Part shown: positions 1 through 23,204 of the stretch, piece after piece
Layout of the letters: every line of letters starts with the position of its first letter
How positions within the stretch are numbered: the stretch's first letter is position 1
Source of the DNA: Candidatus Micrarchaeota archaeon CG1_02_49_24
GTDB lineage: Archaea > Micrarchaeota > Micrarchaeia > Anstonellales > UBA8471
Direction: 5' to 3'
NCBI GenBank assembly: GCA_001871535.1
Contig: MNVF01000038.1
Coordinates: 1-33,063 of the forward strand
Length of the DNA: 33,063 bases
The notes under the pieces: generated by a model
What the model saw: only the letters and a program-made list of their open reading frames with translations
Told to the model about the DNA's origin: nothing
Databases searched by the model: none
Made by a program: the position numbers and the translations under genes

Positions 1-2
1 TT

Positions 3-83
3 GAGCGACCAGCACCCGTAGCGTTTCCGAATGGTGCTGGCGTTGGTTTTGCCCCACGGCACAACCATGCGCAAAACTCGCTC
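3..83 (-). repeat. Family-A double-hairpin element, copy 4. It is in inverted orientation, lies 3' of the aconitase-X small-subunit gene, and its outer stem may continue past the left edge of the window.
   Basis: Read on the minus strand the layout is gagcg-a-[gttttgc N18 gcaaaac]-caacg-[ccagcac N18 gtgctgg]-t-cgctc. Plus-strand coordinates are stems 9-15/34-40 and 46-52/71-77, loops 16-33 and 53-70 (18 nt each), linker 41-45. Confidence 0.75.
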
Positions 84-107
84 CAAAAGGTCATGGAATA
101 CATTCAA

Positions 108-1683: not shown

Positions 1684-3249
1684 CTACAAAAACCTTGTCA
1701 AATCAACCTTCGGGAAAACCGCTTTCCCGAAGTTCTTGCCATTCGCCTTCAACGGGGCAGTGCAGTCAAACCCGCATTTTGCGGTGAAGCACGTTCCGGG
1801 CTCGGCGCTCGGGTCCAGGCTTGAGCCTTTTTCCCTGGGTTTCATCACAAGGCCAGCGTCTGCCTGGAAGCGCGTTGCCATTGCCCACTCGATATCAAGG
1901 GGGTTGTAGATGTCAATGTCCTTGTCAACTATGAAGACGTGCTTGCAGCTTTTATGGCCTTCGAATGCCGCGGCAACCGCCTTTTTCCCGTCGTCTTCCT
2001 GCCGCTTGTCAATTTTGACTATCGCGTGCAGCCAGGAGCAGCCGCCTGGATTGATGTTCACGTCGAGGCATTTGACACCGGCTTCCTCAACCTTTTTGAA
2101 AATCGTGGGCTCGCGCGGCATGCCCATAATGACCTTGTGCTCAAGCTTGCCGGGCAGCAATGCCTGCCATATCGCATCTTTTCTATGGGTTATTCTTTTT
2201 ATCGTGAGCACCGGCTCCTGCCTTGTTATGTCTGTCGTCTCGGTAAGGTCAACAAACGGCCCTTCTGGGGCTTTTTCGTCAAGCCTGACAGTGCCCTCAA
2301 GTACAAACTCGCAGTCTGCCGGAATCGTGGCGTCAAACGTTTTCGCCCTTACAACCTTCAGCGACTCGAGCGAGTTTGCTATCTCCAGTTCGTTCAGGCC
2401 GAAGTCTACTGAGGTTGCGGCAGCAATAAGCACGTTTGGCGCATTGCCGACGCAGACCGCAACATTGAGCTCCTCGTTCTTTTTCAGCAGCTGGTCAAAG
2501 TGCCTGTCTCTTACGACCCGTATTGAAAATTTGTTCTTCCCTATCTGCATTGCCCTATGGAAATCCACGTTCTGTATGCCATCCTTGTCCCTTGTTATGA
2601 AGACCCCGGAACTTATGTAATTGCCGCCGTCTCCTTCGCAGTGGAAGAGTATGGGCAACTTGTCCAGGTCTATTTCCCCAAACTCCACTTCCTGGCAGGG
2701 CGCGCTTTTCACTTCCTCTGGCTTTGTGGGGTGCTCTATTGCCCGGGTTATCTTGGGGATAAGGCCGCCAGCATGAATACTCCGAGGGCTGAAGCCCTCG
2801 GTTTCTGCTGGGTAAACCTGTTCTGGTAATGTCTGTTGGGCTTCAGGCGAGAACCCAGCAGAAACCGCATAGGTGGGTGCGCTTTTTCCCAGCACTAAAC
2901 TGCTGGGTTTCGAGATATTTCTGAGCGAGTGCTGCGCTTGGGGTTGCCGTATGGCAGCACCAACGCCCGGGCCCAAACACCTATCTGTGCTGGCTCGGGT
3001 CGCTCCGGAATATCTCGGCGCACCCTCTGAGTATTCATCAATGCCGAAATAGGCGGCAACCTGCCCCTTGGTGGCAAAGATGTTTCCTGCAACCCTGAAG
3101 CCCGACCCCGTTATTTTTTCAAAAAGCACAGGCCTTTCGCCAGACCCGTTCAGTATGGCCGAAGCCTCCAATTTTCTTGAAACTGACTTTTTCACCGTTG
3201 TAAGCCGGCCCTGCGCGTCCAGCTTTTCAAGATAGCTGCGAAAACTCAT
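1684..3249 (-). CDS. UbiD-family decarboxylase, probably anhydromevalonate phosphate decarboxylase. It carries a ~91-codon in-frame insertion.
   Basis: The UbiD fold is recognisable over the whole ORF (PVLFEKI..GNIF, SAPCQEV, GNYISSGVFIT, PEGPFVDLTE, GGCSWLHAIV). ATG at 3249 overlaps the ubiX stop as ATGA, whereas the track start at 3258 is GTG. Residues ~75-165 are foreign to the family. Confidence 0.85.
   Translation of the reverse strand: MSFRSYLEKLDAQGRLTTVKKSVSRKLEASAILNGSGERPVLFEKITGSGFRVAGNIFATKGQVAAYFGIDEYSEGAPRYSGATRASTDRCLGPGVGAAIRQPQAQHSLRNISKPSSLVLGKSAPTYAVSAGFSPEAQQTLPEQVYPAETEGFSPRSIHAGGLIPKITRAIEHPTKPEEVKSAPCQEVEFGEIDLDKLPILFHCEGDGGNYISSGVFITRDKDGIQNVDFHRAMQIGKNKFSIRVVRDRHFDQLLKKNEELNVAVCVGNAPNVLIAAATSVDFGLNELEIANSLESLKVVRAKTFDATIPADCEFVLEGTVRLDEKAPEGPFVDLTETTDITRQEPVLTIKRITHRKDAIWQALLPGKLEHKVIMGMPREPTIFKKVEEAGVKCLDVNINPGGCSWLHAIVKIDKRQEDDGKKAVAAAFEGHKSCKHVFIVDKDIDIYNPLDIEWAMATRFQADAGLVMKPREKGSSLDPSAEPGTCFTAKCGFDCTAPLKANGKNFGKAVFPKVDLTRFL
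2764..3036 (+). repeat. Composite hairpin insertion inside the UbiD ORF (antisense to the gene). It contains family-A copy 3.
   Basis: Nested and adjacent inverted repeats account for most of it (a handful of short linker runs are left over). These are ccgagggc-tgaa-gccctcgg (2782-2801), ttctgctgggt/acccagcagaa (2803-2813/2853-2863), gggtgcgc/gcgcaccc (2875-2882/3018-3025), cccagca-ctaaac-tgctggg (2888-2907) and the core at 2911-3017. Confidence 0.8.
2911..3017 (+). repeat. Family-A double-hairpin element, copy 3
   Basis: The layout is cgagatatttctgagcg-a-[gtgctgc N18 gcagcac]-caacg-[cccgggcc N18 ggctcggg]-t-cgctccggaatatctcg. The loops are 2936-2953 and 2974-2991, both 18 nt. Confidence 0.85.
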
Positions 3250-3800
3250 TTGCCCCACCGCCTGAACTTTTCATTTTTAATTCCAAACAAATCCATTATC
3301 TTTCCGGTAATAAACGATTCCAAATCCTTTATAGTTTTGGGTTTATAATAGAACGCCGGAGACAGGGGGAAAACAATTACGCCATAAACCGAAAGGTCGT
3401 ACATGTTCCTCAGGGTAGGTGGGCTTAAAGGCGTTTCCCTGACGCACACCACAAGCCTTTTCCCAGTCTTCAGCATGTTGTCCGCGGCCCTTGAAATCAA
3501 AGTCGAGCAATCCGCCCTCGCAATCTCTGAAATGGTTTTAATTGAAGCCGGAATTACAATCATTCCATCCACCAGAAAGGAAGAGCTTGCAATGGGCGCA
3601 GTCATATCATGATTTGAAAAAACATGTGAAGCCAATTTTTTAATACTCGCAACCGTGCAACTGGTTTCTTCCACAACCAATTTTTCCGCCCAGTCGCTTA
3701 CCACCAGGAAGGTTTCAACCTTTGCCTCTTTCAGGGCATTCAGCAGGTCAATGGCGTAATTCACGCCAGATGCGCCGCAGATGCCGACTATAAGCCTCAA
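3246..3800 (-). CDS. ubiX: Flavin prenyltransferase UbiX (makes prenyl-FMN for the UbiD-family enzyme)
   Basis: The 184-aa ORF has an N-terminal MRLIVGICGASG flavoprotein motif and overall UbiX/Pad1 likeness. It is the first gene of the minus-strand operon. Confidence 0.9.
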   Translation of the reverse strand: MRLIVGICGASGVNYAIDLLNALKEAKVETFLVVSDWAEKLVVEETSCTVASIKKLASHVFSNHDMTAPIASSSFLVDGMIVIPASIKTISEIARADCSTLISRAADNMLKTGKRLVVCVRETPLSPPTLRNMYDLSVYGVIVFPLSPAFYYKPKTIKDLESFITGKIMDLFGIKNEKFRRWGK

Positions 3801-3889
3801 TAACTCACCCTAGAACATCAGATTTTACGAATTGAATGTAAATTATTGAAGTGCTGCCATTTAAAATCGGGGGTTTTGCCAATATAATT

Positions 3890-5113
3890 ATGGAAACTAC
3901 TAGTTCAGGGCAGCTATTCCAGCGCCTCAGGAAACAGGGCTATCACCTAGTGGGAAAACATTCTGCTGTGAAAGCCTGCAAATGGGCAGGCTGCGCACTT
4001 AGGAGAGAGGGCAAGTGCTACAAACACGCTTTTTACGGAATTGAGAGCCATCGCTGCGTCCAGTGCACGCCTGCATTGCAATTCTGCACCCTTTCATGCA
4101 GGTTTTGCTGGAGGATGATGCCCGAAATTTCAAAGCGAGTGCCGTATGAACCTGCACTTATTTGCGGCACCGACGCCCAAGCCCCTATGAAACCGCCCGA
4201 TGGCTTGGGTCGCTTGGAGATTTCGCCAGAGGAGAAATGGCAGAAATTGCCAACGGATTTTGAATGGGATGACGCAGGCACGATTATTGACGGACTGCTT
4301 ATGGGGCAGAAGAAACTTGTTTCCGGCTTTGGCGCATTTGCGGATAAAAAAATGTTCGGCGAAGCATTGGCTCCCAGGCATGCAGCCATAAGCCTTACCG
4401 GCGAGCCTACGATATACCCGCACCTTGGAGAATTGATTTGTGAATTCCATAAAAGGGAGATGACCACCTTCCTCGTGACAAATGGCACGCTACCTCAACA
4501 AATCCGAAAACTGGAAGCTGAAAAGCGCCTGCCCACCCAATTATATGTTTCAATGGTAGCCCCTGATGAGAAGACATACCTTCAGACCGCGCAAACCGAG
4601 GACAAACGGCTATGGAAAAACTATCTGGAAACATTGGAAATTTTGAAGGGAATTGGAAAATGTCACAGGACTGCGCTCAGGATGACGCTGGTGAAAAGAT
4701 TGAATGCAGGAACCCGAAACACACAACCCGAAACCCTGACATGTTGGAGCGAGCGCTCCGAGACGGCACTTATGGCAGGAGCGCCGACGCCCGAGCCACA
4801 GGACAATTCCATGAAGGCTCGGGTCGCTCCGACATGTCACCGAAACTGCATTGACGGTTATGCCAAGCAGATTGAGCTTGCCAAACCATGGTATGTGGAA
4901 GTGAAAAGCTTCGTTTATGTCGGAGGGGCAAGGAAGGAGGAGCGGGGCCTGTGCTTAAACGACATGCTCATGATGGAGGAGGTAAGGGAATTTGCAAAAC
5001 TGCTCGCTGAAAAAACAGGCTACATTATCGCGGCCGAGCATGCGCCCAGCAGGGTGGTGCTCCTGTGCAGGAATGAAAACGCAGCAGAAGGCAGGATAAT
5101 AAAACATGCCTGA
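3890..5113 (+). CDS. taw1: tRNA 4-demethylwyosine synthase Tyw1/Taw1 (radical SAM). It carries two in-frame insertions.
   Basis: Motifs seen are HSAVKACKW, the radical-SAM CTLSCRFCWR, SLTGEPT, FLVTNGT, LYVS and VEVKSFVYVGGAR. ATG at 3890 fits the family N-terminus, whereas the track start at 3851 is GTG. Confidence 0.85.
   Translation: METTSSGQLFQRLRKQGYHLVGKHSAVKACKWAGCALRREGKCYKHAFYGIESHRCVQCTPALQFCTLSCRFCWRMMPEISKRVPYEPALICGTDAQAPMKPPDGLGRLEISPEEKWQKLPTDFEWDDAGTIIDGLLMGQKKLVSGFGAFADKKMFGEALAPRHAAISLTGEPTIYPHLGELICEFHKREMTTFLVTNGTLPQQIRKLEAEKRLPTQLYVSMVAPDEKTYLQTAQTEDKRLWKNYLETLEILKGIGKCHRTALRMTLVKRLNAGTRNTQPETLTCWSERSETALMAGAPTPEPQDNSMKARVAPTCHRNCIDGYAKQIELAKPWYVEVKSFVYVGGARKEERGLCLNDMLMMEEVREFAKLLAEKTGYIIAAEHAPSRVVLLCRNENAAEGRIIKHA
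4124..4224 (+). repeat. Family-A double-hairpin element, copy 1 (inside Tyw1, sense orientation)
   Basis: The layout is gaaatttcaaagcg-a-[gtgccgt N18 gcggcac]-cgacg-[cccaagcc N18 ggcttggg]-t-cgcttggagatttc. The loops are 4146-4163 and 4184-4201. Confidence 0.85.
4703..4852 (+). repeat. 150-nt insertion inside Tyw1 containing family-A copy 2 (core 4738-4838)
   Basis: The outer clamp is aatgcag/ctgcatt (4703-4709/4846-4852). The core is gacatgttggagcg-a-[gcgctcc N18 ggagcgc]-cgacg-[cccgagcc N18 ggctcggg]-t-cgctccgacatgtc. The 5' arm carries aacccgaaac twice. Confidence 0.85.
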
Positions 5114-6256: not shown

Positions 6257-7432
6257 ATGATTATTTTAGACCTAGACGTAAAGAGGCATGAAGCCAGGGT
6301 CAGCGACGCCTCCAGCGTTGGCCAGCTGGTCAATGGCTGCTATGGCGAAATGGTGAAAGGCACCATCCACCTGACCCCGGAGGAAGCGCTCTATCTCATG
6401 GACATACGCAATGCCAGGGCATTTGACGAAAAACTCAACGAATATTCGTTCAACCAGGTGGCAGGCCTCTTCAAGGTGCCTAAGCTTATCCCCCGCTACC
6501 TGACCTATAAGGATTGGAGGGACAGGGGCCTCATTGCCCGCAATTTCAGGGATTTGGCAAGGCTCAACGAGCGCTTCAACAAGGACGTGGTGGCAAACTA
6601 CCCGCACTCTGAATTCCAGCCAAAGCAGTTCTCAGTTGACGGCATGTTCTTCAAGGACAGCCTCATGAGCGTAATCGATGAGGAAAATGCAGGCCGGGAG
6701 CTTTACAACACATATTGGATAGGCCAGTACGGCACCTACAAGGCAGATGCCCGCGGCAAGCTCCTGAAGCTGGATGTATACGAAACCCTTTTCCTGCTCA
6801 GGCATTTCAATTTCAAGCTGGTGAATTCAGATGAAAAAGAGGTCCTGGCAACTGCCAGGGGCCACAACAAGGACTTCCCAAGCCTTTATGATGTGTATGA
6901 GGACTGGCGGCTCAGGAACTTCATACTCAAGACAGGGTTCAAATTCGGCACCCATTTCCGGGTCTATTTCCCTGGCGCCAGCCCGGCAAAAAGCGGCACA
7001 GACTGGATGCATTCCAAGCACGTGATACACGTGTTTCCAAGGAAGAGCAAGCTGCTCATATCCGAATGGGCGCGGGCAATCAGGGTGGCCCATTCAGTGA
7101 GAAAGACGTTCATACTTGCCATCCCAGGGGAAAAGGCAAAGGGCGAAAAGGAAGTCAGTGAGCTGGATTTCCTGCTCTATCACAGGAGAAAGGAGGGCAT
7201 TGAGACGCCGCGGGAGGGCAAGCCGAAATACCTAATGTTTTCGCTCTCTGAGGAAGAGTTCATAGGCGGTGCTGAGCTTGCCAATGCGATTGAATTCTGC
7301 AAGAAAGCCGGCCTTGGCCTGATGCTTGCCATTGCGGATAGGGAGACCAGCGTCACCTACTACCTTGTGAGAAGGATTGACCTGAAGGGAAGCAAATACG
7401 GATATTATGAAATTGGATGGTACCAGCCGTAA
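6257..7432 (+). CDS. endA: tRNA-splicing endonuclease, single-chain multi-unit form (resembles the three-unit epsilon-type described for ARMAN archaea)
   Basis: The central catalytic unit is GFKFGTHFRVY...HSKHVIHVF...AHSVRKTFILAI (Tyr/His/Lys). An N-terminal unit has LTPEEALYLM and YKDWRDRGLIAR. An extra C-terminal structural unit ends in LMLAIADRETSVTYYLVRR. At 391 aa it is roughly twice a homotetramer-type subunit. Confidence 0.85.
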   Translation: MIILDLDVKRHEARVSDASSVGQLVNGCYGEMVKGTIHLTPEEALYLMDIRNARAFDEKLNEYSFNQVAGLFKVPKLIPRYLTYKDWRDRGLIARNFRDLARLNERFNKDVVANYPHSEFQPKQFSVDGMFFKDSLMSVIDEENAGRELYNTYWIGQYGTYKADARGKLLKLDVYETLFLLRHFNFKLVNSDEKEVLATARGHNKDFPSLYDVYEDWRLRNFILKTGFKFGTHFRVYFPGASPAKSGTDWMHSKHVIHVFPRKSKLLISEWARAIRVAHSVRKTFILAIPGEKAKGEKEVSELDFLLYHRRKEGIETPREGKPKYLMFSLSEEEFIGGAELANAIEFCKKAGLGLMLAIADRETSVTYYLVRRIDLKGSKYGYYEIGWYQP

Positions 7433-7494
7433 TGGTCTCGGGTCTTGGATATCTGGACTCTGAACCCTGGACTCTGGACCCTGGATTGATGGGG
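7433..7494. repeat. Heptamer-like word array (ggtcttgg atatctgg actctga accctgg actctgg accctgg)
   Basis: The array starts directly after the endA stop (TAA 7430-7432). It contains ggactctggaccc at 7469-7481, which recurs at 7889-7901. Confidence 0.7.
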
Positions 7495-7869: not shown

Positions 7870-9072
7870 ATGAATCCATCAGGACTCAGGACTCTGGACC
7901 CAAGACCCGCTGGACCCAAGACCCTGGACCCTAGACTCGACGGCAAGCATATCTGCATCTGCATCACAGGCAGCGTCGCCTCTGTCAGGGCATTCGACTT
8001 GGCAAGGCTGTTGATTAAATTTGGCGCCAAAGTTACCTGCGTTGCATCATCTGAAGCATTGCGCTTTGTGGCAAAGGAGAGCCTTGAATGGGCAACCGGC
8101 AACCCGGTGATTGACAAAATCACCTATAAGTGCGAGCACCTTGAGCTGGCAAAGTGCGATGCAGTTGTAATTGCGCCTGCAAGCGCAAATACAATTTCAA
8201 AAATCGCCCTGGGCATCGCCGACACGCCGGTTACCCTTGTGGCACAGAGCGCGCTGACACAAACACCCGCCATAATTGCGCCTGCCATGCACAGGCTGCT
8301 GATGAACCCCATAATCAAGGAGAACCTGAAAAAACTGGAAAAACTGGAAAAGGTCACGGTGATTCCTTCGGTGAAAGCCGATGGAAAGGAGAAATTGGCT
8401 GATGTGGAGGAGATTGCGGATTATGCAATAAGGGCAGTTGCGACAAAGCGCCTGGAAGGAAAGAGGATTTTGATAGTGGGAGGTGCCTTCAGGGAATACA
8501 TTGATGACGTGAGGTTCATTTCAAACGGAAGCTCTGGCAGGTTTTCGGTTGCGCTTGCGAAAGAATGTTTTTACCAGGGGGCGGATGTGACATTGGTGCA
8601 TGGAAAAACTGAGGTTGCCGCGCCAAAATATGTTGAAACGATGGGGATTGAAACAACAACGGAATTGATTGGAAAGATTGAAGAATTTGCGAAAGGAAAA
8701 TGCATCATACTCTTCCCGGCAGCCCTTAATGATTTTTCAATTGTGAAAAAAAAGGACGGCAAATTTGACAGCACAAAAAGGCAACCCATTGAGCTGGCGC
8801 CATTGCCGAAGGCAATCAAAATCGCAAGAGAAGCGAACAGAACGGCGAAAATAATCGGGTTTAAGGCTGAGGTTAGTAGCAGTGTTAATGCAGAAAAAAT
8901 AAAACGATTGCTGGAAAATTGTGATTCTCTTGTTTGGAATGATATTGGGAAGCATGGGTTTGGCAGTGATGAGACTGAGATAATTATATTTGCCAAAAGC
9001 GGAAAGGAAATTGGAAAATTTGCCGGGATGAAAGATGAACTGGCAGAGAGAATAATCGATTTGGTTCAGTGA
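7870..9072 (+). CDS. coaBC: Bifunctional phosphopantothenoylcysteine decarboxylase / phosphopantothenate-cysteine ligase (CoaBC/Dfp)
   Basis: The flavoprotein domain shows ICITGSVASV and APASANTISKIALGIADT. The DFP domain shows ILIVGGAFREYIDDVRFISNGSSG. The only ATG upstream of the core is 7870, so the first ~24 codons are encoded by the word array. Confidence 0.85.
   Translation: MNPSGLRTLDPRPAGPKTLDPRLDGKHICICITGSVASVRAFDLARLLIKFGAKVTCVASSEALRFVAKESLEWATGNPVIDKITYKCEHLELAKCDAVVIAPASANTISKIALGIADTPVTLVAQSALTQTPAIIAPAMHRLLMNPIIKENLKKLEKLEKVTVIPSVKADGKEKLADVEEIADYAIRAVATKRLEGKRILIVGGAFREYIDDVRFISNGSSGRFSVALAKECFYQGADVTLVHGKTEVAAPKYVETMGIETTTELIGKIEEFAKGKCIILFPAALNDFSIVKKKDGKFDSTKRQPIELAPLPKAIKIAREANRTAKIIGFKAEVSSSVNAEKIKRLLENCDSLVWNDIGKHGFGSDETEIIIFAKSGKEIGKFAGMKDELAERIIDLVQ
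7879..7940. repeat. Heptamer word array (caggact caggact ctggacc caagacc ... ctggacc ctagact) overlapping the coaBC 5' end
   Basis: It has a visible 7-nt period and shares ggactctggaccc (7889-7901) with the array at 7433-7494. Confidence 0.7.
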
Positions 9073-9161: not shown

Positions 9162-10352
9162 ATGGTTATGGATGAAACACTGAAAACCAGGTACATAATG
9201 GAGCGCGAATTCCGCAGGATGAAGGCGCACGAGGGCAGTGGCACTGAGCTGATTTCGCTCTACATCCCGGAAACCTATCCCCTAGGCAACATCAGCAACA
9301 TGCTCAGGAGCGAATACAGCCAGGCATCCAACATCAAGTCAAAGGCCACGCGCAAGAACGTGATGGCCGCCATTGACAAAATACTCAATTATCTCAGGCC
9401 GTTCAACAAGGTTGGCAAGAACGGCATGGCGCTCTTTTGCGGCAACATATCAAGGGACGACAGCGTGACTGACGTGATACTGTTCAAGATCGTGCCGCCC
9501 CAGCCGCTCGAGGTGCAGCTCTACAGGTGCGATTCAAAATTCTTCATGGAACCCCTCGAACGGATGGTTGAGATAAAAAATGCCTACGGCCTGGTGGTGA
9601 TGGACGGAAGGGAGGCAACCATCGCAATCCTCAAGGGCACCAACATCAACATAGTCAAGAAAATGAACTCGACGGCCCATGCCAAGATCCGGAAGGGCGG
9701 CCAGTCTGCACGTCGTTTTGAGCGCCTTATCCAGGAAAGCATAGATCTCTATTACACGCGCATTGGCGAGGCAATGGACGAACACCTCCTTGGCAGGATT
9801 GATGGCGTGATTGTCGGAGGACCAGGCCCAACCAAGGACTTTTTTCTGAGAGCGAAATCCTTCAACTACCAGTTCAAAATCATCGGCATGGTTGACACGG
9901 GCTATACTGATGAATACGGCCTGCGCGAGCTTGTGGAAAAGGCAAAGGAACTCCTTGCCGAGCAGGAGATTGTGAAGGAACGGGAATTGATAGAGCGCTT
10001 CGTCAAGGAGGCTTCGGGCAATGGCTTAGCCACCTATGGATTGGAGAAAACGCTAAGGGCAATTTACAAGAATCAGGCGGACAGGATACTCGTTTCAGAC
10101 GACAGCGGATTTAGGGTAAGGCAATACAAATGCGGCGAGTGCACCAGCATTTCCTTTTCTGCGGACAACAGGTGCCAGCTCTGCCAGTCGGAAAACATAT
10201 CCCTGCTGGAGGAGAAGCCCCTGGAAGATGCCATGCTCGACCTTGCCATTGAGAAAAATATTGAATACGTGCCTGTTTCAGGAAAGAGCGCTGAGGGAAA
10301 GCAGTTCCTCATGGGATTTCAGGGGATTGGGGCCTTTTTGAGATATAGGTAA
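9162..10352 (+). CDS. prf1: Peptide chain release factor aRF1
   Basis: It has the NIKS motif (QASNIKSKATRKN), the GGQ motif (RKGGQSARRF), GTELISLYIP, and a CxxC...CxxC mini-domain in the C-terminal part. Confidence 0.9.
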   Translation: MVMDETLKTRYIMEREFRRMKAHEGSGTELISLYIPETYPLGNISNMLRSEYSQASNIKSKATRKNVMAAIDKILNYLRPFNKVGKNGMALFCGNISRDDSVTDVILFKIVPPQPLEVQLYRCDSKFFMEPLERMVEIKNAYGLVVMDGREATIAILKGTNINIVKKMNSTAHAKIRKGGQSARRFERLIQESIDLYYTRIGEAMDEHLLGRIDGVIVGGPGPTKDFFLRAKSFNYQFKIIGMVDTGYTDEYGLRELVEKAKELLAEQEIVKERELIERFVKEASGNGLATYGLEKTLRAIYKNQADRILVSDDSGFRVRQYKCGECTSISFSADNRCQLCQSENISLLEEKPLEDAMLDLAIEKNIEYVPVSGKSAEGKQFLMGFQGIGAFLRYR

Positions 10353-10371
10353 CGGTAAATTTTGGGACAAT

Positions 10372-10854
10372 TCACCCATTCGCATTGCTGCTATAGCCCG
10401 CCGTGCCCACGCCTAATTTGCAGGCAGTCTGGTTCGTAACTCCAATTTCCATCCTGCCAGAATAGATTCTGGTGCCAGGCGTGCTCTTCACGATGAATGA
10501 GAGCGTGCCCTTCCACAGCCCATCGCACTTGCTTACGGGGATGGGCTTGCTGAGGTTTGCCTCGCCGAATACGCAGCCGCTTTCATCATATGCATAGTTG
10601 ACCAGTTTCTTGCCCACAAAAACCTGGCTTGAGACCAAATCAGTGGCGCACTGCATGATGGCAATTTTCTGCTCAGGGGTGACAGCGCCGCGCACGTCCA
10701 TAACTATGGAAACGCTTTTCGCGGAGATTATGTTGCCCAGGAACTCCTGCAGCGGCACCTCTTGCTCCTGCGGGCTGAATAGGATGAAATTGCTCAGTAT
10801 AAGAGCAAGCCCAATGCCCAACGCAAGAACCAGCAGCTTGATGGTTGAATCCAT
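10372..10854 (-). CDS. Small membrane-anchored protein (hypothetical)
   Basis: The start was moved to MDSTIKLLVLALGIGLALIL (ATG 10854). The 46 upstream codons of track ORF 10372..10992 run through non-coding hairpin repeats. Confidence 0.6.
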   Translation of the reverse strand: MDSTIKLLVLALGIGLALILSNFILFSPQEQEVPLQEFLGNIISAKSVSIVMDVRGAVTPEQKIAIMQCATDLVSSQVFVGKKLVNYAYDESGCVFGEANLSKPIPVSKCDGLWKGTLSFIVKSTPGTRIYSGRMEIGVTNQTACKLGVGTAGYSSNANG

Positions 10855-11110
10855 GAAAATCCCTCTAACAGTTGCGGGTTCCGGGTTGCGAGTTTCGGGC
10901 ACTGAATACGTAACTCGGAACTCATCGACCCGAAGGGGAGAGCTATTCGCCGGCAGGCGATCAACAGCTATTGCTGTTGAGAATTTCTCCAACTGGAGAA
11001 ATGCCAGCAGACGAATTCAAAAACCCGAAACCCGAAACTCTTATCAGCTGCCAATTGGATTTCGCTTGATAGCGAAAAGCTCGCAACATAGAAGATGTCG
11101 ACCACCTTGC
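10855..11110. repeat. Tetraloop mini-hairpin array (family B) in the intergenic leader
   Basis: Hairpins seen are tcaacagc-tatt-gctgttga (10961-10980), atttctcc-aact-ggagaaat (10983-11002) and tttcgct-tgat-agcgaaa (~11061-11078). The words acccgaaac and gagtttcggg occur in inverted copies. Confidence 0.7.
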
Positions 11111-16419: not shown

Positions 16420-16447
16420 TTAAACCTTAAACTTTAGACCTTAAACC
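16420..16447. repeat. Four tandem heptamers: ttaaacc ttaaact ttagacc ttaaacc
   Basis: Read directly from the sequence. It abuts the duplicated 3' end of the Cdc48-like gene. Confidence 0.7.
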
Positions 16448-16450
16448 TAT

Positions 16451-16614
16451 TTCCTCTCCCCGTAAGTCTTCATGTTGATGAAACTGAAGAGAGCTTCGCT
16501 GCTCACGCATGCATGCTCTCATTCTGTTTGAATGCACCTGCGGATGCATAGCTCGGCGACTGTTGTCACCGATTCCCCAAGCCCCTTCACTTCCTCTCCC
16601 CGTAAGTCTTCATG
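16451..16614. repeat. 24-nt perfect direct repeat (16451-16474 and 16591-16614) flanking a 116-nt hairpin-rich insertion at the 3' end of the Cdc48-like gene
   Basis: ttcctctccccgtaagtcttcatg occurs twice, 140 nt apart. Both copies encode ...MKTYGERK followed by a stop (TGA at 16587, TAG at 16447). Confidence 0.8.
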
Positions 16615-19600
16615 AATGCATAATAAGCCTGCAACATCTCTAAGGAAATGGATGGCCGCCTGCCCTTTATCACTGCAAATATCTCTGCCATTGAGAGATG
16701 CGGTTCAATGCCCCTCAGCTTTTTCTTCACCATCTCAAGCTTGACCCCCTGGCAGATTGAGGTGATGTCTGCCGCCGAGAAGCCCTCAGTCAGCCTGCTG
16801 AGCTCATCATAATCAATGACTGCCCCTGCCGCCACACCCTCAAGGTTTCTCTGGAAGATGTTGGCCCGTGCTTTCAGGTCAGGCGGTGGGATGAACACTA
16901 TCTTGTCAAACCTGCCGGGCCTCATGAGCGCAGGGTCGAGAATCTCCGGCTTGTTGGTGGCGCCTATGAGAAGCACGTTCTTGAGCTCCCGGACCCCGTC
17001 AAGCTCGGAGAGCAGCTGGCCGACAAGGCCGCCATCTGAGAGCTCACGGGAGGGCGCCACAGTCTCAATCTCGTCTATGAATATGATGGCAGGCGCCTGC
17101 TCCTTGGCGCGGTTGAATGTTTCTTTCAGCACCCGGATGCTGTTGGCATAGCCCTTTTTGAGCAGCTCGGCACCTGAGAGAAACTGGAAGGTGGCCTTCA
17201 ACTCATTGGCGGCAGCCTTGACTATGAATGTTTTGCCGCACCCTGGAGGTCCGAATAGGAGCATGCCCTTGTAGGGCTTGACCTTGTACTGCTCCATCAA
17301 GTCCTCGTGGAGAAGCGGCAGCTCGATGGCATCCAGGAGAATGGTCTTCACCTCATCCAGGCCGACCACGTCTGCCCATCTCACAGCATCCTCTTTTTTC
17401 TTTTCCACCTGGCGGCCGACTCTCCTTTCGAAATCAAGCCGGAACTGCTCGTATTCCTCGAGCTGCTCCAGGCCGACGCTGGGCCTGACGTTGTCCAGCA
17501 CCCGCAGGAGGTGCTCCATGGTGATGGGCAGGATTTTGTTCTGCTTTGACGCGTCGGCGGCTGCAAACCGCGCGGCTTCCCTGCACACATTGGCTATATC
17601 AGCGCCCGAGAACCTGTCGGTTTTCTTTGCCAGGAGGCCAAGGTCGATATTTGCCGTTGGAAGCTTGCTCAGCTGCACCTTGAAAATGTCCTTTCTTCCT
17701 TCGGGGTCAGGCAGCTTCATATAGATGATTTTGTCGAACCTGCCGGGCCTGAGAAGGGCGGCATCAAGCATATTGGGGACGTTGGTGGTGCCTATGACCA
17801 TCACGGGCTTGGTTGCGCCCTTGTAGCCGTCAAGCTCTGTGAGAAAAACGGACATTACCCTGGGCGCCACGTCGTCTGCGCTGTAAAGCTCGCGCTTTTT
17901 CCCAATGGAATCAATCTCGTCAAAGAAAAGGATGGAGGGCGCGTTTTCCCTGGCGACCTTGAAAATTTCCGCGACATTTTTCTCGCTGTTGTGGGCAAAG
18001 ATGCCGCCGAACCCGCCAGCGAAATTCTGGCAGGGCTCAACTGAGATATCGTAAACGAATTCCTCATCGGCAACCTGCCTTATTTCCTCAACCCTGTCCC
18101 AATAGATGTCGCCATTGACCACTTTTTCAAGGCTGGTGGATGATGCACCAAGCTTTGTATGTTTCATCAGAAGAATTTGCCTGCCTATGGTTGCCGAGCC
18201 TGCCTCAGAATATTTCTTAAGGTTCCGGAAGACCCATTCCTTCAGCTCGCCGGAGAGCGGTATCTGCACATCGCGGTGCCAGGAACCGGCCTCAAGCGCG
18301 CATTCATACCGCTTGTTCCGCATATCATCCAGAAATCCTATCTGCCCAAAACCCCGGAAGGGTTCGCCGGTCAGGAAAATGCGATACATAAGGGCGCCGC
18401 TCCATTCCATTTTTTCACGCACAGTGGCAACGATGCCGAAATACAATAATAGATATAGAAGCTGGCTGGCAAGGGTTTTGCTGGCAGTGCAGGCCTCGAC
18501 AGTGCCAATTCCTTTCTGATTTTCATAAACCGTGCCATCGCCAGAGAAATAGCCCCTGAGAAAGGCGGCAAGCCTCAGCCTGTCAAGCGAGAACACGGCA
18601 ACTGGCGCCTTCTTCCTCTCAGCACCATGCTCAAGCCCAAGGAAATGCCTCATGAAAACATAAAGCACCCTACCTGGGATATATATGTCGCGGCCCCTGC
18701 CGACGCCACGAAAGTTTTCAGTTTTGGAGTTTCCAGTCTGGGAGTTTTGACTCTCTTCCCTTTCTTCTCCCGAGGGTCTTCTTTCTGGGAAAGAAGAGGC
18801 TCTTTTCTTTTCATAGATGATTATTTTGCCGAAAAGCTTTGCGCATAGTTCGGCAATCTTTCCGAGCTGGCAGTCAGAGGTGCTTACCCTGACCGTGTCT
18901 TCCCGAGTGTAGCTGCCCTCTGCAACCCACAGGCCGAGAAAGAGCGCCAGCTCTCCATCAAGCTTGATTATGCCCGGCAGGCCTTTGCAGGCGCCCTTTC
19001 CTGTGCAGACCAGGATTTTACTGCTGTCATATGAAATGCCGGTGCGCTCCATGAGTGCAATGAACCTGCCGGCCGGCAGTGAAATTTCCTTTTCCCTTGA
19101 CAGAATGTATTTCAAGTATTTGGTATTTTTTAGGCCGAGAAGGATATGTGTTTCGTTTGCGCCGATTTTTTCAACAGCAAGTTTTACGTAATCTCTGACT
19201 CGAGTTACCCTAAGGCCATAATCCGCATGTTTCAGGCTGCCGAGAAAATCAAGCTGCCCAACAGGTGCACTGGGAAACTCGACTCTGGAGGGGATTGCGA
19301 TGTATGAAAAACCCGCCTTGAGTTTTGAGGTTTCAATGCTCTTCACTGAGCTGCCGTCTATAGTGAATAGGGAATGATAACCGGTAACGCGAATTCTGCG
19401 GCCGCTCCTCGTGCGCACTTCGTAAATGGGGGATGTGCATTTGTGTTTTATGTGGCCGGCGATTTCGGCAAACACGGCTTTCCCTTTTTCGTCGAAGCTC
19501 AGAACTTTGGCATCCCTCCTTTGCTCAACAATTTCTCCAATCTTTGCAAGCTTTACCGCACCGTTTTCCATTATCATGATTTCCTCATCGTATGGCAGGC

Positions 19601-20912
19601 TTTCGCCGTACCATTGAGATAAAAGCTCTGAAGTTTTCACATTGTAGAAGCCATAGCTCATCTCCTTTGAGAGAGCGCGCATCAGCATGGTTTTGCCTGT
19701 TCCGGGCGGGCCGAAAAGAAGCACGCCGCTGGGCGGCTTTATGCCGTAGGTGAAGCTCAATTCCTTGTGAAGGAGCGGTGTGATGATTGCCTCGCGCAAC
19801 TCTGCCTTCACGTCATTGTAGTTGCCCACATCATCAAGGGATTTTTCAGCCGTTGACTCTGCCATGTCCTGGACGCCGAACTTGCCGAACTTCTTTGTCT
19901 TCCGCCTGCGCTCAATCAGGCGCTCCCTGCTAAGGTCAACACCGCAGAAGTCAAGCAGGGCCACAATGGCAATCGAGATTACTATATATATAACAGAAAC
20001 CGCAGAGAACATGAACGGCACGCCAAATGCGCTCAGCAAAAGATTGGCCGCAGGCACTCCTAAGAGGGAGAGCGCACCCACGGTCTGCTTCCAATTGCTC
20101 TTTATATTGCCAGGCAGCCAGCCTGCAAGGAACAGGATTGCCCCCCAAAGAAAAATGTGGAGAAGGCCTGAGTCGGCAATGAACAGCTTAAGCATATTGT
20201 CAGCAATTTTCCCCAGCGATGGGGTAATCTGCTTCAATATTATGTCATAGGAGAAAATTGAAACCACAGATGCGGCTGCCTTGGATGGGAGTTCCAGCAG
20301 GCCCACCTCTTCCCTGATGTCATGCTGGAGCGCATCAATCTTCGGGGTGAACTGGCCCAGGTTTGTGATAGGCATGAAGGCGCTGTTCTGCACTATCCAG
20401 AGCGAGGACAGGAGAAGGATTAAACAGACAGCCGGGATGGAAATCACAATACTCCGCTGGGAGCCGGTGCGGAAAGCCCCGAGCACCATGAGCAACGGCA
20501 CAAACCCGGAAAGCAGCGAAAATGGCAATGGCGCAAACGGCGCGCACACGATTATTTCAAGGAATGCAATGACATCCCAGTCTTCATGCATCTGGAATAG
20601 GACAAGGGAGATAATTAGCATAAACGGCCATACGAATAGCGGCGCCTGATAGGAGAGGGCAGGAATTGCGAATATTATGCCCATGATTATGCCAACCTGG
20701 GGAAACCTGTAGGCAGCCAGGCCGCAGGCGAGCGCAAGCAAAAATGAGATGTAAATAGGATAGAACTGGAAAAGCACGAGAAGATAGAGCGCGCCCAGGA
20801 AAATCAGCACAGCATTGCCGAGCTCCTTGTTCTCCTGAAGGGATTGTAGCGTTGCCCTGACCTTCTGCTCGGACATGGTTGCGGATTTCAGTTGTTGTGT
20901 TGAAGCGCTCAC
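16587..20912 (-). CDS. Membrane-anchored double-AAA+ ATPase (Cdc48/VCP-like D1+D2) interrupted by an intein
   Basis: About 330 N-terminal residues form multiple TM helices. D1 has Walker A GPPGTGKT and Walker B ILFFDEIDS. D2 has GPPGCGKT and IIFIDEIET. SRH-like and arginine-finger regions follow each domain. Confidence 0.85.
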   Translation of the reverse strand: MSASTQQLKSATMSEQKVRATLQSLQENKELGNAVLIFLGALYLLVLFQFYPIYISFLLALACGLAAYRFPQVGIIMGIIFAIPALSYQAPLFVWPFMLIISLVLFQMHEDWDVIAFLEIIVCAPFAPLPFSLLSGFVPLLMVLGAFRTGSQRSIVISIPAVCLILLLSSLWIVQNSAFMPITNLGQFTPKIDALQHDIREEVGLLELPSKAAASVVSIFSYDIILKQITPSLGKIADNMLKLFIADSGLLHIFLWGAILFLAGWLPGNIKSNWKQTVGALSLLGVPAANLLLSAFGVPFMFSAVSVIYIVISIAIVALLDFCGVDLSRERLIERRRKTKKFGKFGVQDMAESTAEKSLDDVGNYNDVKAELREAIITPLLHKELSFTYGIKPPSGVLLFGPPGTGKTMLMRALSKEMSYGFYNVKTSELLSQWYGESLPYDEEIMIMENGAVKLAKIGEIVEQRRDAKVLSFDEKGKAVFAEIAGHIKHKCTSPIYEVRTRSGRRIRVTGYHSLFTIDGSSVKSIETSKLKAGFSYIAIPSRVEFPSAPVGQLDFLGSLKHADYGLRVTRVRDYVKLAVEKIGANETHILLGLKNTKYLKYILSREKEISLPAGRFIALMERTGISYDSSKILVCTGKGACKGLPGIIKLDGELALFLGLWVAEGSYTREDTVRVSTSDCQLGKIAELCAKLFGKIIIYEKKRASSFPERRPSGEEREESQNSQTGNSKTENFRGVGRGRDIYIPGRVLYVFMRHFLGLEHGAERKKAPVAVFSLDRLRLAAFLRGYFSGDGTVYENQKGIGTVEACTASKTLASQLLYLLLYFGIVATVREKMEWSGALMYRIFLTGEPFRGFGQIGFLDDMRNKRYECALEAGSWHRDVQIPLSGELKEWVFRNLKKYSEAGSATIGRQILLMKHTKLGASSTSLEKVVNGDIYWDRVEEIRQVADEEFVYDISVEPCQNFAGGFGGIFAHNSEKNVAEIFKVARENAPSILFFDEIDSIGKKRELYSADDVAPRVMSVFLTELDGYKGATKPVMVIGTTNVPNMLDAALLRPGRFDKIIYMKLPDPEGRKDIFKVQLSKLPTANIDLGLLAKKTDRFSGADIANVCREAARFAAADASKQNKILPITMEHLLRVLDNVRPSVGLEQLEEYEQFRLDFERRVGRQVEKKKEDAVRWADVVGLDEVKTILLDAIELPLLHEDLMEQYKVKPYKGMLLFGPPGCGKTFIVKAAANELKATFQFLSGAELLKKGYANSIRVLKETFNRAKEQAPAIIFIDEIETVAPSRELSDGGLVGQLLSELDGVRELKNVLLIGATNKPEILDPALMRPGRFDKIVFIPPPDLKARANIFQRNLEGVAAGAVIDYDELSRLTEGFSAADITSICQGVKLEMVKKKLRGIEPHLSMAEIFAVIKGRRPSISLEMLQAYYAFMKTYGERK
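17988..19601 (-). mobile_element. 538-aa intein with a LAGLIDADG homing-endonuclease domain, inserted in AAA+ D1 between Walker A and Walker B
   Basis: The host junction is WYGE|S...FAHN|SEKNV, which restores the canonical GESEKNV. Block B is RVTGYHSLF. The two LAGLIDADG motifs are LALFLGLWVAEGS and LAAFLRGYFSGDGT. The C-terminal block is VYDISVEP..NFAGG..IFAHN followed by Ser+1. Confidence 0.85.
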
Positions 20913-20959: not shown

Positions 20960-21290
20960 GGACTAGATTCACAGGTATCAGATTTTACGAAGAGCCCATC
21001 GAGCAGACTTTGTCTGTTTGAGCTATCGCGCAACAGCACGATTCAATCGGCGGCAGCAGTCGGCGAGATTTTCACCCGCAGGTGAAAAGCCAGCAGGCAA
21101 TCGGCGGCAGCAGTCGCCGAGCTATGCACCATCTGGTGCATTCAACTGTCAGCAAGGCTGACAGTACACAGATTGAGCCTGTTTGAATCGACCTGTTGGT
21201 TGATCAGATTTTCCGAAGAGCCTCTCTCGCTGATGCGAGAGACCCTGCACAATGTGCAGGGTATGAAGGCTCATTCGGAAAATCTGATAA
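20960..21290. repeat. Hairpin-dense divergent intergenic region (families B and C)
   Basis: Hairpins seen are cagac-ttt-gtctg (21004-21016), ttttcacc-cgca-ggtgaaaa (21069-21088), tgcacc-atct-ggtgca (21125-21140), ctgtcag-caagg-ctgacag (21146-21164) and tcgacc-tgtt-ggttga (21188-21203). The direct repeat caatcggcggcagcagtcg recurs 55 nt apart. Confidence 0.75.
21203..21281 (+). repeat. 79-nt perfect repeat, copy A (family-C three-way-junction element)
   Basis: It is identical to 32919-32997. The fold is cagattttccgaagagcc-[tctctcgc tgat gcgagaga]-[ccctgcac aatg tgcaggg]-tatgaa-ggctcattcggaaaatctg. The closing stem extends to 21287 in this copy. Confidence 0.9.
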
Positions 21291-21467: not shown

Positions 21468-22613
21468 ATGGCAATCCTTATCATAGTTTTCTCAGCCGGA
21501 TTCATAGCCCTCCTCTACCTCATGAAAAAAACCAGCGCGAAAAAGACGAAATATCTCACCAGCGTAGACACCCAGAGGCTGCCGGGCGAAGGCGCCCATG
21601 TGGGCCGAATCGCAGAGCAGAGCTTGAGTGCCTACCTGCCCTTTGACAAGCTCACCATGCATTCCCTGGTGGCAGGCGCCACTGGTTCAGGCAAGACCGT
21701 TGCTGCCCAGGTAGTTGCCGAGGAGGCGCTCCTGAACAAGGTGAGCATACTCGTGTTTGACCCAACGGCGCAATGGACAGGCTTCCTCAGGAAGCAGGCT
21801 ATAAGCGATATGCTGAAACGGTATGCGCGGTTTGGCCTGCAAAAGAGCGATGCGCGTGCATTCGACGGCAACATCTACCTAGTGGAAAATTCCGAAACGT
21901 TCCAGATAAACGTGAAAAAATACATGATGCCCGGAGAGATAAACGTATTCGTGCTGAACAGGCTGAAGCCCCAGGAGATGGAAATCATTGTTACCCGCGT
22001 GATTAAGGCGGTATTCGAGGCGAACCTGGAGGAATACAGGGGGCTGCGGCTGCTCATTGTGTTTGACGAGGTGCACAGGCTGCTTCCGAAGTTCGGGGGG
22101 ACTGGTGAAGGGTTTAAGCAGATAGAACGCGCGGTCCGCGAGTTCAGGAAATGGGGCGTTGGGATGGTGCTTGTCTCCCAGGTGCTGAGCGATTTTGTTG
22201 GTGAAATCAAGGCGAACATTGGCACTGAGATGCAGTTCCGGACGAAATACGAGCAGGATTTGGAGCGCATACGCTACAAATTCGGCCCGGAATCATTGCT
22301 GGGAGTGGTGAAGGCAAATGTCGGCACCGGGCTGATGCACAATTCGGAATACAACAACGGCAATCCCTATTTCGTGGAATTCCGGCCGCTCTTGCACAAT
22401 GTGGTGCGATTGAGCGACAAGGAGCTTGACACTTATAAAAGGTATAATGACAGGATTGTGGCGTTGGAGCAGAGAATTGAGAAAATGAAGGAAGATGGGA
22501 ATGATGTATTTGATTTGAACCTTGAGCTGAACCTGGCAAAAGATAAAATGAAAAAGGGCGCGTTCAACATTGTGGATATTTACCTTGAGAGCCTGGAAGG
22601 GAAGACGGCTTGA
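21468..22613 (+). CDS. Membrane-anchored P-loop NTPase of the HerA/FtsK/VirB4-like (DUF87-type) kind
   Basis: It has an N-terminal TM (MAILIIVFSAGFIALLYL), Walker A (VAGATGSGKT) and Walker B (LLIVFDEVHRL). The start was moved from TTG 21339 to ATG 21468. Confidence 0.65.
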   Translation: MAILIIVFSAGFIALLYLMKKTSAKKTKYLTSVDTQRLPGEGAHVGRIAEQSLSAYLPFDKLTMHSLVAGATGSGKTVAAQVVAEEALLNKVSILVFDPTAQWTGFLRKQAISDMLKRYARFGLQKSDARAFDGNIYLVENSETFQINVKKYMMPGEINVFVLNRLKPQEMEIIVTRVIKAVFEANLEEYRGLRLLIVFDEVHRLLPKFGGTGEGFKQIERAVREFRKWGVGMVLVSQVLSDFVGEIKANIGTEMQFRTKYEQDLERIRYKFGPESLLGVVKANVGTGLMHNSEYNNGNPYFVEFRPLLHNVVRLSDKELDTYKRYNDRIVALEQRIEKMKEDGNDVFDLNLELNLAKDKMKKGAFNIVDIYLESLEGKTA

Positions 22614-22812
22614 AAAGGACCTGCTCTTCCAGGCTGACGATAATGTTCTACTCTTGGTCCATAATGTTCTGGGAAGGCACACGCCACTCTTTCTCTAGTG
22701 CGGTTATCCCAGCCGCCTGCGACATTAGAAACAAATTGGGCAAGATATGTTCCCACAACTTCTTTAGGATCAGGGCGTGTAGTAACTTCCTGTAGTGCAA
22801 CTTTAGCATGAT

Positions 22813-23100
22813 TTCTTATGCCCTCTGGTAATCCATCATCATGGATGGCTTCACGTAACAAATCTGTCCGGCCGATTCCTGCCGCAGCGTCAAGCGCATA
22901 TGTTCTTATGCCCTCTGGTGATCCATCATCATGGATGGCTTCCCTTAACAAATCTGTCCGGCCGATTCCTGCCGCAGCGTCAAGCGCCGTATGCATTTGC
23001 GTTTGCGCATGGTTTCTTATGCCCTCTGGTAATCCATCATCATGGATGGCTTCCCTTAACAAATCTGTCCAGCCTCTTCCTGCCGCAGCGTCAAGCGCAC
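22813..23100 (-). repeat. Three near-identical coding repeat units (offsets 90 and 111 nt) encoding HEAT repeats
   Basis: ttcttatgccctctggt.atccatcatcatggatggcttc...tcctgccgcagcgtcaagcgc starts at 22813, 22903 and 23014. The peptide is LDAAAGIGRTDLLREAIHDDG.PEGIR. Confidence 0.85.
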
Positions 23101-23106
23101 TTTTTA

Positions 23107-23204
23107 GTAAAGTCCCTATCTTGCCAACCACTTCATCTCTATTTCCTCGGAATACAGGGTGTGCACGAGCCCGGTAAAGTCCCTATCTTGCCAACCACTT
23201 CATC
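23107..23204. repeat. 31-nt perfect direct repeat (23107-23137 and 23174-23204) bracketing 36 unique nt
   Basis: gtaaagtccctatcttgccaaccacttcatc occurs twice with a 67-nt offset. Confidence 0.85.

Follow-up and report, generated by a model that had tools for sequence, protein, structure and literature searches.

Insertions in a Micrarchaeota TYW1 gene

The 33,063-nt stretch analysed here (contig MNVF01000038.1, hereafter the window) is a gene-dense contig of a Micrarchaeota (DPANN) archaeon. Its Tyw1 gene (3893-5113, plus strand) encodes an archaeal TYW1/Taw1 protein, the radical SAM enzyme 4-demethylwyosine synthase, with matches to the Pfam families Radical_SAM and Wyosine_form. The gene carries two insertions, each of which contains a copy of a 103-nt structured element that we call family A. 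A protein search returned 5258 homologues of the window Tyw1, and the best named matches were all TYW1 proteins of Micrarchaeota. In the alignment with the Pyrococcus horikoshii TYW1 (PDB 2YX0), gaps occurred only at query residues 79-123 and 272-320.

Insertion 2 was examined most closely. Its peptide, AGTRNTQPETLTCWSERSETALMAGAPTPEPQDNSMKARVAPTCHRNC, sits between ...TLVKRLN and IDGYAKQIE. In an alignment of 17 TYW1 proteins, about 5 residues separated ...LN from GYA... in the other members and 50 in the window protein, in agreement with an earlier remark that relatives have only a few residues at this point. A preliminary description of this DNA gave the insertion as 150 nt. The insertion is real, but relative to homologues it measures 135 nt (4712-4846, 45 codons), since the 150-nt span takes in the host codons N, A and G on the 5' side and C and I on the 3' side. 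The 135 nt consist of a 30-nt repeat tract and 105 nt contributed by the element, which agrees with the alignments.

From left to right, all on the plus strand, insertion 2 is composed as follows. The left part of the repeat tract (4712-4736, 25 nt, ACCCGAA ACACACA ACCCGAA ACCC) is the putative landing tract and bears both copies of the word aacccgaaac (4711-4720 and 4725-4734). Its last two nucleotides (CC, 4735-4736) are the left copy of a putative 2-bp target-site duplication, recognised by comparison of flanking dinucleotides. Then comes the family-A element (4737-4839, 103 nt), which was delimited by a terminal inverted repeat (TIR) paired at 15/16 positions, by folding, by covariation and by a covariance model score of 126 bits. 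The right copy of the duplication (CC, 4840-4841) and the right remainder of the tract (GAAAC, 4842-4846) complete the insertion. When the core and one CC were removed, what remained was ACCCGAAACACACAACCCGAAACCCGAAAC, a tract of 30 nt and 10 codons (TRNTQPETRN) between the host codons GGA and TGC. The core had previously been placed at 4738-4838 with a length of 101 nt; it is indeed there and folds beyond chance, but its TIRs bound it at 103 nt. Likewise, the arm said to carry aacccgaaac twice does hold both words, but it is the target tract and not a part of the element.

The preliminary description also took the arms aatgcag (4703-4709) and ctgcatt (4846-4852) for a 7-bp outer clamp of the element. 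Both arms are literally present on the plus strand. The left one, however, lies outside the element and consists of the host codons N and A and the first base of G, and the right one consists of the last tract base and the host codons C and I. Such a clamp is at chance level, as random placements in the window had a perfect inverted repeat of at least 7 bp in their 45-nt flanks in 9.4% of cases (p about 0.09). No comparable flank repeat was found at the other canonical copies, and the clamp is broken by a synonymous GCA to GCT change in the orthologue on L001, a related contig of GCA_964358515.1. The clamp is thus not part of the element. A direct repeat ATTGA around the 150-nt span was also considered as a target duplication and rejected; its copies are 151 nt apart by hand count, which is incompatible with an in-frame insertion.

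The element family and its distribution

A strict pattern scan of metagenome contigs yielded nine groundwater loci. A covariance model (R1) was built from 11 copies and run on those loci and on further related Micrarchaeota contigs (denoted, like L001, by L numbers). About 19 distinct copies were found in all, with 2-4 per related contig of 4-14 kb. The window itself holds four copies in 33 kb, three of them full-length and one truncated. The motif GAGCGAG-33 nt-ACGCCCnnGCC-18 nt-GGCTYGGGTCGCT was found at three places in the window, each on the plus strand, and the 16-mer GGCTCGGGTCGCTCCG had three window matches against 0.15 expected.

The second full copy makes up Tyw1 insertion 1 (4123-4225, plus strand, 103 nt, 93.8 bits) and is flanked by CC at 4121-4122 and 4226-4227. 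The third (2913-3015, plus strand, 103 nt, 91.4 bits), with CG at 2911-2912 and 3016-3017, lies in a UbiD gene (1684-3258, minus strand). It is antisense to this gene and sits within a larger nested insertion (about 2712-3027). The truncated copy (1-97, minus strand) is cut by the window start and lacks its 3' end. The covariance model recovered it with 51.2 bits (E = 1.6e-10) directly downstream of an AcnX swivel-domain gene.

A stretch of 111 nt, comprising the core of insertion 2 and its immediate flanks, is identical to a copy in L044. In some nested copies the loop of hairpin i holds an extra small hairpin (L040 6403-6550; L038 11989-12174). Among the members of the Tyw1 cluster, contigs and gene calls start or stop inside elements, as expected of a high-copy repeat that breaks assemblies. 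The two insertions in one gene had been taken to indicate a high element load or a target preference. The evidence points to both, through copy density and broken assemblies on the one hand and the recurrent RAAC-YC|RGAAC target sites described below on the other.

Beyond these contigs, a search of 185,579 species-representative genomes with the hairpin-ii pattern gave only chance matches in high-GC bacteria, the lineage being apparently absent from the representatives. A protein search with four concatenated element frames found 2 proteins among 5.8 billion and missed the window Tyw1 itself, as a word-index search is unsuited to 35-aa peptides. The TIR pattern had four chance matches in viral contigs, none of which was confirmed by the covariance model. 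Given that the genome matches were due to chance and that the peptide frames found only 2 proteins, the family-A subfamily looks confined to a narrow lineage.

According to the alignment, the loop of insertion 1 or its vicinity is also the site of different insertions in other TYW1 genes of Micrarchaeota. Those whose DNA was examined contained strong hairpins (z from -2.6 to -5.9 against mononucleotide shuffles). In L045, whose TYW1 (P0005) is 45% identical to the window protein, the insertion at 10334-10436 spans 103 nt and has a three-way-junction fold. It matched the family-A covariance model weakly (21.9 bits, E = 0.0026), and it has the GGGCTTTAGCCC hairpin in common with the second hairpin family of UbiD described below. 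These similarities are thin hints of an older and wider superfamily that may extend beyond the lineage.

Ends, target site and length increment

Sixteen copies were listed by anchoring on the conserved inner motifs. The element was exactly 103 nt long in 14 of the 16, and in 13 of them the terminal 16 nt were complementary at 14-16 of 16 positions, forming a TIR that begins TGACATGTyGGAGCGA. The flanking dinucleotide was the same on both sides in 11 of the 16 copies (10 independent loci). It was mostly CC. The other matching pairs were TC/TC in L037, CG/CG at the window UbiD copy and GG/GG in L038, where the element is inverted relative to the same target. An identical dinucleotide on both sides, including GG/GG at the inverted copy, is the sequence signature of a 2-bp target-site duplication. 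For insertion 1, the gap as first placed by the alignment was misleading, and anchoring on the TIRs gave a clean solution of 103 + 2 nt.

Each insertion thus adds 103 + 2 = 105 nt. This is exactly 35 codons, so the downstream frame is kept at every insertion. Three of the 6 frames of the canonical unit contain no stop codon, and in some copies a fourth is also open; the two closed frames read the terminal TGA. It follows that about half of the insertions into genes would leave the open reading frame (ORF) open.

Most target sites fit RAAC-YC|RGAAC, which is the junction between two 7-nt repeat units. Tandem tracts of such units (RRACYYN) also occur in the window without a core, at 7452-7485, 7879-7936, 10871-10899, 11021-11038, 16420-16448 and 31494-31522. 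It had been proposed to compare aacccgaaac with the words at 10870-10900 and 11020-11040 to see whether it is a separate module. The core-free tracts found there and elsewhere, at six or more places in the window, bear this out. The 7-nt tracts are the preferred target of the 103-nt element.

The units of these tracts include TCTGGAC, AAACCCG and TTAAACC, and the tracts sit at gene ends and at the borders of variable segments. An N-terminal extension of CoaBC is encoded by the tract at 7879-7936, and those at 16420-16442 and 31498-31520, 15 kb from each other, make up an inverted pair. The segment 7446-7944 (499 nt), which fills the gap between the tRNA-splicing endonuclease and CoaBC genes, has 7-nt repeat tracts at both borders. 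In L001 (6033-7005) it is swapped for 973 nt that code for a 251-aa protein on the minus strand.

Fold and covariation

In the consensus fold, an outer stem of about 15 bp meets hairpins i and ii at a three-way junction. In the insertion 2 element, the outer stem (the TIR) pairs 4737-4751 with 4825-4839, hairpin i pairs 4753-4759 with 4778-4784, and hairpin ii pairs 4789-4797 with 4816-4824. The RNA fold of 4690-4865 had an energy of -69.3 kcal/mol (z = -4.9 against shuffles). The DNA fold of the core alone reached -36 kcal/mol with z = -7.7. The GC content of the element is 62%, compared with 50% for the window.

The pairing was well preserved among 13 distinct copies. Standard pairs filled 92.9% of the cells, compared with 33-42% when the partners were slid by 1-3 columns, and 17 of the 36 pairs had changes on both sides, a number reached in none of 500 shuffles. 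In hairpin i, 98.9% of cells were paired and 5 of the 7 pairs had compensatory changes. The sequence was nearly invariant at the junction and in hairpin ii (ACGCCCnnGCC...GGCTYGGGTCGCT), and the remaining stems covaried. Covarying internal hairpins point to a part for single-stranded DNA or RNA in the spread of the element. The asymmetry between G-U and A-C pairs was tried as a guide to the structured strand or to RNA, and its signal was too weak.

The preliminary description held that the element is conserved at the level of nucleotides or structure and not as a peptide. This agrees with the intragenic copies, which occupy at least four combinations of frame and orientation, and with the pairing kept by compensatory changes. 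The segment cgacgcccRagcc is indeed read in different frames in the two Tyw1 copies, giving GTDAQAP in insertion 1 and GAPTPEP in insertion 2. A peptide conserved in homologues that lack the inverted repeats would have spoken for the opposite. The only protein that shares the peptide, P0002 of L001, has the repeats, and the repeat-free homologues are all without the peptide.

Comparison with a syntenic contig

L001 is syntenic with the window at 87-95% nucleotide identity, and at about 87% across Tyw1. All coding indels between the two were multiples of 3 (18, 21, 48, 105 and 147 nt). The 105-nt difference is insertion 1, which is absent from L001. We reconstructed its empty site by removing 4123-4225 and one CC from the window. 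The resulting ATG ATG CCA GAG GAG AAA TGG (MMPEEKW) has the same length as the L001 sequence ATG ATG CCT GAA AAT AAG TGG (MMPENKW).

L001 does have insertion 2, flanked by the same host codons and equal in total length, but the core follows nucleotide 4 of the tract there and nucleotide 25 in the window. The shift of 21 nt equals three repeat units. The core itself differs at 6 of 103 positions, four of them in loops as assigned by hand, whereas the synonymous sites of the host gene are 29% different (synonymous divergence dS 0.37). The simplest reading of these sequences is that the core was inserted or moved after the split between the window and L001, into a pre-existing tract. No allele without an insertion was found among the members of the Tyw1 cluster.

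At the UbiD locus, 219 nt in the window correspond to 72 nt in L001 (1640-1711). The 72 nt belong to a second hairpin family (...EGMLPPKA...GFSPRSIH), which includes the hairpin CCGAGGGCTGAAGCCCTCGG found at 2781-2800 in the window. This second family sits between the N-terminal and central domains of UbiD in both sequences, and in the window the family-A copy is nested beside it. The UbiD insertion of the window, about 100 residues long, is a nest of at least three modules.

L001 has an in-frame insertion of its own in the N-terminal region of Tyw1 (about 2678-2740). It consists of 48 nt, IEHPKDARAIAQERDS, forms two small hairpins (z = -3.5) and is absent from the window. A difference of 45 aa between the TFIIE-alpha proteins of L055 and L056 was also inspected and set aside; it came from a different start and C-terminal end, with no element.

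Consequences for the encoded proteins

All intragenic copies are open in the host frame. They lie in Tyw1 (twice), in UbiD, in a MutL-like ORF of L042 and, as three adjoining copies, in a 644-aa ORF of L041. The L042 copy falls in the inter-domain linker of the MutL-like ORF, which was recognised by eye in the sequence. The copies use at least four frames and lie in both orientations. The element reads LTCWSERSE... in Tyw1 insertion 2 and ...GTDAQAP... in insertion 1. In UbiD it reads ...GATRAS..., and in L038, L041 and the MutL-like ORF of L042 ...ERPEPS.... Copies also occur between genes, such as L044 1301-1403 and a copy in L039 that is apparently upstream of an ArgG-like gene.

The AlphaFold2 model of the window Tyw1 kept the TYW1 fold, with 205 of 406 residues at a predicted local distance difference test (pLDDT) score of 90 or above. 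Residues 80-114 and 275-315, which cover both insertions, had pLDDT values below 50 and lay between a strand and a helix. If translated, insertion 2 would give the tryptic peptides NTQPETLTCWSER, SETALMAGAPTPEPQDNSMK and VAPTCHR, and insertion 1 would give peptides spanning VPYEPALICGTDAQAPMKPPDGLGR.

Interpretation and alternatives

Taken together, insertion 2 is probably a non-autonomous element of the MITE type (miniature inverted-repeat transposable element), which landed in a 7-nt repeat tract within a surface loop of the enzyme, is translated, and resembles the Rickettsia palindromic elements (RPEs) in behaviour. Insertion would duplicate 2 bp at the junction of two repeat units, preferentially RAAC-CC|RGAAC, and would add 105 nt (35 codons) each time with no shift of the downstream frame. 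The 45 inserted residues, 10 from the tract and 35 from the element, would then be read as an unstructured loop between a strand (...TLVKRLN) and a helix (DGYAKQIELA...), and this loop would leave the TYW1 fold intact. A transposase encoded elsewhere may move the element in trans, and a single-stranded form, DNA or RNA, may take part in its spread. We infer both this transposition chemistry and the landing-pad role of the repeat tracts.

Several points weigh against this interpretation. There is no transposase in the window, and about 140 kb of Micrarchaeota sequence yielded no cognate autonomous insertion sequence (IS) with the same ends. A 2-bp CC duplication is unusual among known IS families, and several divergent or composite, non-canonical copies have no matching flanks. 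The 30-nt tracts of the window and L001 may not be orthologous; their 23/30 identity (lengths and identity counted by hand) is weak evidence, since all such tracts resemble each other. The slower change of the core relative to synonymous sites could mean function or gene conversion rather than recent movement. Copies were counted as intragenic only if spanned by an ORF, so gene-disrupting copies would score as intergenic. Finally, the signs of translation are indirect, consisting of coding indels in multiples of 3, open host frames, the structural model and the alignment with 2YX0.

The only transposase seen in the related contigs examined belongs to an IS481-family insertion sequence of 967 bp in L052 (422-1388), which adjoins a composite family-A copy (L052 185-370). 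It was rejected as a partner of family A. Its ends (TGTGGTATCC.../...GGATACTACA) are unrelated, and it is flanked by a direct repeat of about 12 bp (CTGATTTATAAC). Two other assignments were also discarded. An intein is about 130 aa or more, whereas the insert has 35-45 aa and is without splicing termini (N-terminal Cys/Ser; C-terminal His-Asn followed by Cys/Ser/Thr). The other was a palindrome element derived from IS200/IS605. Such elements have subterminal hairpins without TIRs, make no target duplication and insert strand-specifically 3' of a fixed target of 4-5 nt. Family A has true TIRs and a dinucleotide that matches on both sides and becomes GG/GG when the element is inverted. These TIRs, together with a duplication that follows the target strand, do not suit the IS200/IS605 mechanism, although IS200/IS605 elements are present in more than 65% of Micrarchaeota genomes (2026 survey, PMC13343696).

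Other explanations keep the insert out of the protein altogether. The element might be intron-like and be cut from the mRNA, by self-cleavage or by the splicing endonuclease at a bulge-helix-bulge (BHB) motif, so that the protein would lack the insert. It is strongly structured, and a gene for a tRNA-splicing endonuclease of 391 aa with N-terminal and catalytic domain matches (6257-7432) lies 1.1 kb downstream of Tyw1, an adjacency kept in L001 and L045. BHB introns occur in an archaeal protein gene, cbf5 of Crenarchaeota, and the three-unit endonucleases of ARMAN-type archaea have relaxed specificity; the window enzyme presumably resembles these. It is the anatomy of the junctions that excludes a BHB intron. 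They lie at the foot of an unbroken outer stem of 15-16 bp, have no 3-nt bulges, and are flanked by GAAACCC and CCGAAAC, which do not pair with each other. An intron would also need neither a length of 105 nt nor a stop-free sequence, yet the intragenic copies are all in frame and open. Moreover, some copies lie between genes, those inside host genes are found in either orientation, and no ribozyme or intron family matched. Excision from the mRNA is therefore very unlikely. It is even harder to credit that the ribosome skips the insertion, in the manner of the mobile 'byp' hairpins known from yeast mitochondria (programmed translational bypassing). The GC-rich mobile hairpin lies within a coding sequence and between similar words (CCGAAAC), which does recall that system. 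However, about 105 nt is far beyond the known bypass gaps, no matching pair of take-off and landing codons stands out, and inserts that are in frame and free of stops make bypassing unnecessary. We consider it exceedingly improbable.

The remaining alternatives assign a function to the insert. It might have been co-opted by the host as a nucleic-acid structure, for instance a protein-bound three-way junction in mRNA or DNA, or a signal for translational pausing or recombination. The near invariance of hairpin ii and the junction beside covarying stems fits this idea, as does the low divergence of the core (6/103 against 0.29 at synonymous sites, with four of the six changes in loops). Both features are equally expected otherwise, the invariant inner sequence from a transposase-binding site and the low divergence if the insertion is recent or if gene conversion acts among many copies. 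Against a host role, the copies share no context of host genes: they lie between genes as well as within them, in several frames and in either orientation. Insertion 1 is also dispensable in L001. We regard such a role as unlikely. Alternatively, the peptide could be a lineage-specific functional module of the protein, with the palindrome being secondary. The peptide is nearly identical in the window and P0002, but different genes read this DNA in at least four combinations of frame and orientation and obtain unrelated peptides, and this use of several frames contradicts a functional peptide. The segment also has pLDDT values below 50, is absent from every other aligned TYW1, including one at 57% identity, and found only 2 proteins among the 5.8 billion searched. 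A functional peptide module is highly improbable.

A more far-reaching version of the mobile-element interpretation can also be considered. Together, the element and the 7-nt tracts may be the two parts of a system that colonises coding sequence in a DPANN genome dense with genes. The tracts, whose length changes by 21-nt steps that keep the frame, would serve as landing pads, a structured single-stranded intermediate and an unrecognised enzyme would be involved, and length plus duplication would be tuned to 35 codons. The element would perhaps still be hopping within one tract, a possibility drawn from the 21-nt shift between the window and L001. We hold this version to be rather unlikely. 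In a weaker variant, the junction may be a new kind of RNA-level excision signal.

Relation to known elements

Archaeal MITEs are known in Sulfolobus, Halobacterium and Haloquadratum (PMC10969869). The family-A element fits the MITE type by size, TIRs, duplication, dispersal and polymorphism as read from the sequences. It has 103 nt, below the limit of about 500 bp, and no transposase ORF, and it shares with MITEs the TIRs, the target-site duplication, dispersed copies, nesting, and presence or absence between relatives. It differs in other respects. MITEs are mainly intergenic (PMC11602168), whereas many of the present copies lie inside genes, where their construction keeps them in frame. Covariation of the internal stems, as seen here, would not be needed by a purely double-stranded transposase substrate. 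The parent IS was not found in the roughly 140 kb mentioned above.

The RPEs (Ogata et al. 2000, summarised in PMC10969869) resemble the family-A element in another way. Both are palindromic repeats of about 100-150 bp with stable predicted hairpins and many dispersed copies in a small genome. Both occur in frame in unrelated housekeeping genes, at sites tolerated by the fold, as well as between genes, and no transposase is known for either. Micrarchaeota are host-associated and have reduced genomes. The likeness is one of behaviour only. The host is a DPANN archaeon here and an alphaproteobacterium for RPEs. Sequence homology with RPEs is not expected, because the present host is an archaeon. 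The clean TIRs of 15-16 bp, the 2-bp duplication, the fixed increment of 35 codons, the covarying three-way junction and the 7-nt tract target also set family A apart. Each RPE encodes a conserved peptide (PMC10969869), whereas the 103-nt element is read in several frames.

Two further systems are less similar. Like the family-A insert, the BHB intron of archaeal cbf5 is short, structured and placed in a housekeeping gene, and here a gene for a splicing endonuclease lies close by. The present element has no BHB motif, is constrained in length and frame, occurs in both orientations and is intergenic in some copies. PARCELs (palindromic amphipathic repeat coding elements; PMC2996958) occur in Mollicutes and protists, where they form tandem repeats within genes for surface proteins and encode amphipathic peptides that resemble one another. 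They share with family A the nature of palindromic coding repeats readable in either orientation, but the family-A insertions are single and dispersed and give unrelated peptides. By analogy, the closest counterpart of the element is the RPE in behaviour and the MITE in anatomy. Full-text searches of the literature found no description of such elements for Micrarchaeota or DPANN.

Genomic setting and other repeats

The genes around Tyw1 encode UbiD and UbiX family proteins, a HAD hydrolase, the tRNA-splicing endonuclease, CoaBC, aRF1 and an intein-bearing AAA ATPase. At 391 aa, the endonuclease is long for an archaeal EndA; it is a normal archaeal housekeeping gene. No tRNA genes were detected in the window, and no Rfam 15 family matched anywhere in it at the gathering score. 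When 2700-5000 was searched with E up to 10, the Rfam matches were weak, below gathering and without any overlap with the elements. The AAA ATPase (16587-20912, minus strand, 1441 aa) is of the Cdc48 type, and its intein has a LAGLIDADG homing-endonuclease domain (Pfam Intein_splicing and LAGLIDADG_3).

We also noted several other small repeats in the window. Two 79-nt repeats (21203-21281 and 32919-32997) are 100% identical, and each forms two hairpins and starts with ATCAGATTTTCCGAAGAG. Weaker relatives lie at 20976-21007 and 3810-3832, and all the window copies are upstream of gene starts. In L039, L040, L041 and L043 the word ctcttcggaaaatctgat of this repeat adjoins family-A copies, and in L038/L052 it is found slightly downstream of one. 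A 50-nt inverted pair (16528-16577 and 21096-21145, 84% complementary, 4.5 kb apart) brackets the AAA ATPase gene. Beside one of its arms is a 41-nt direct repeat (21044-21138), probably yet another small repeat family. An ORF at 22580-23131 (minus strand), with a weak ribbon-helix-helix match, contains three tandem units at 22806-23099, each of about 90-111 nt and 92-94% identical.

Significance

Inserts of this kind have practical consequences. They lengthen proteins by 35-100 residues and split Pfam matches. Only part of the Radical_SAM domain is matched, and the N-terminal and central domains of UbiD lie about 100 residues apart. They also mislead gene callers into placing starts inside the insert, and they break metagenome assemblies. 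The reason why the interrupted genes would survive is readable from the sequence, as the element plus its duplication makes 35 codons and has no stop in most frames. The inserts are also natural raw material for new protein loops. Overall, the findings suggest that selfish palindromic repeats reside within essential genes of a DPANN archaeon, which would extend the Rickettsia phenomenon to a second group with reduced genomes.

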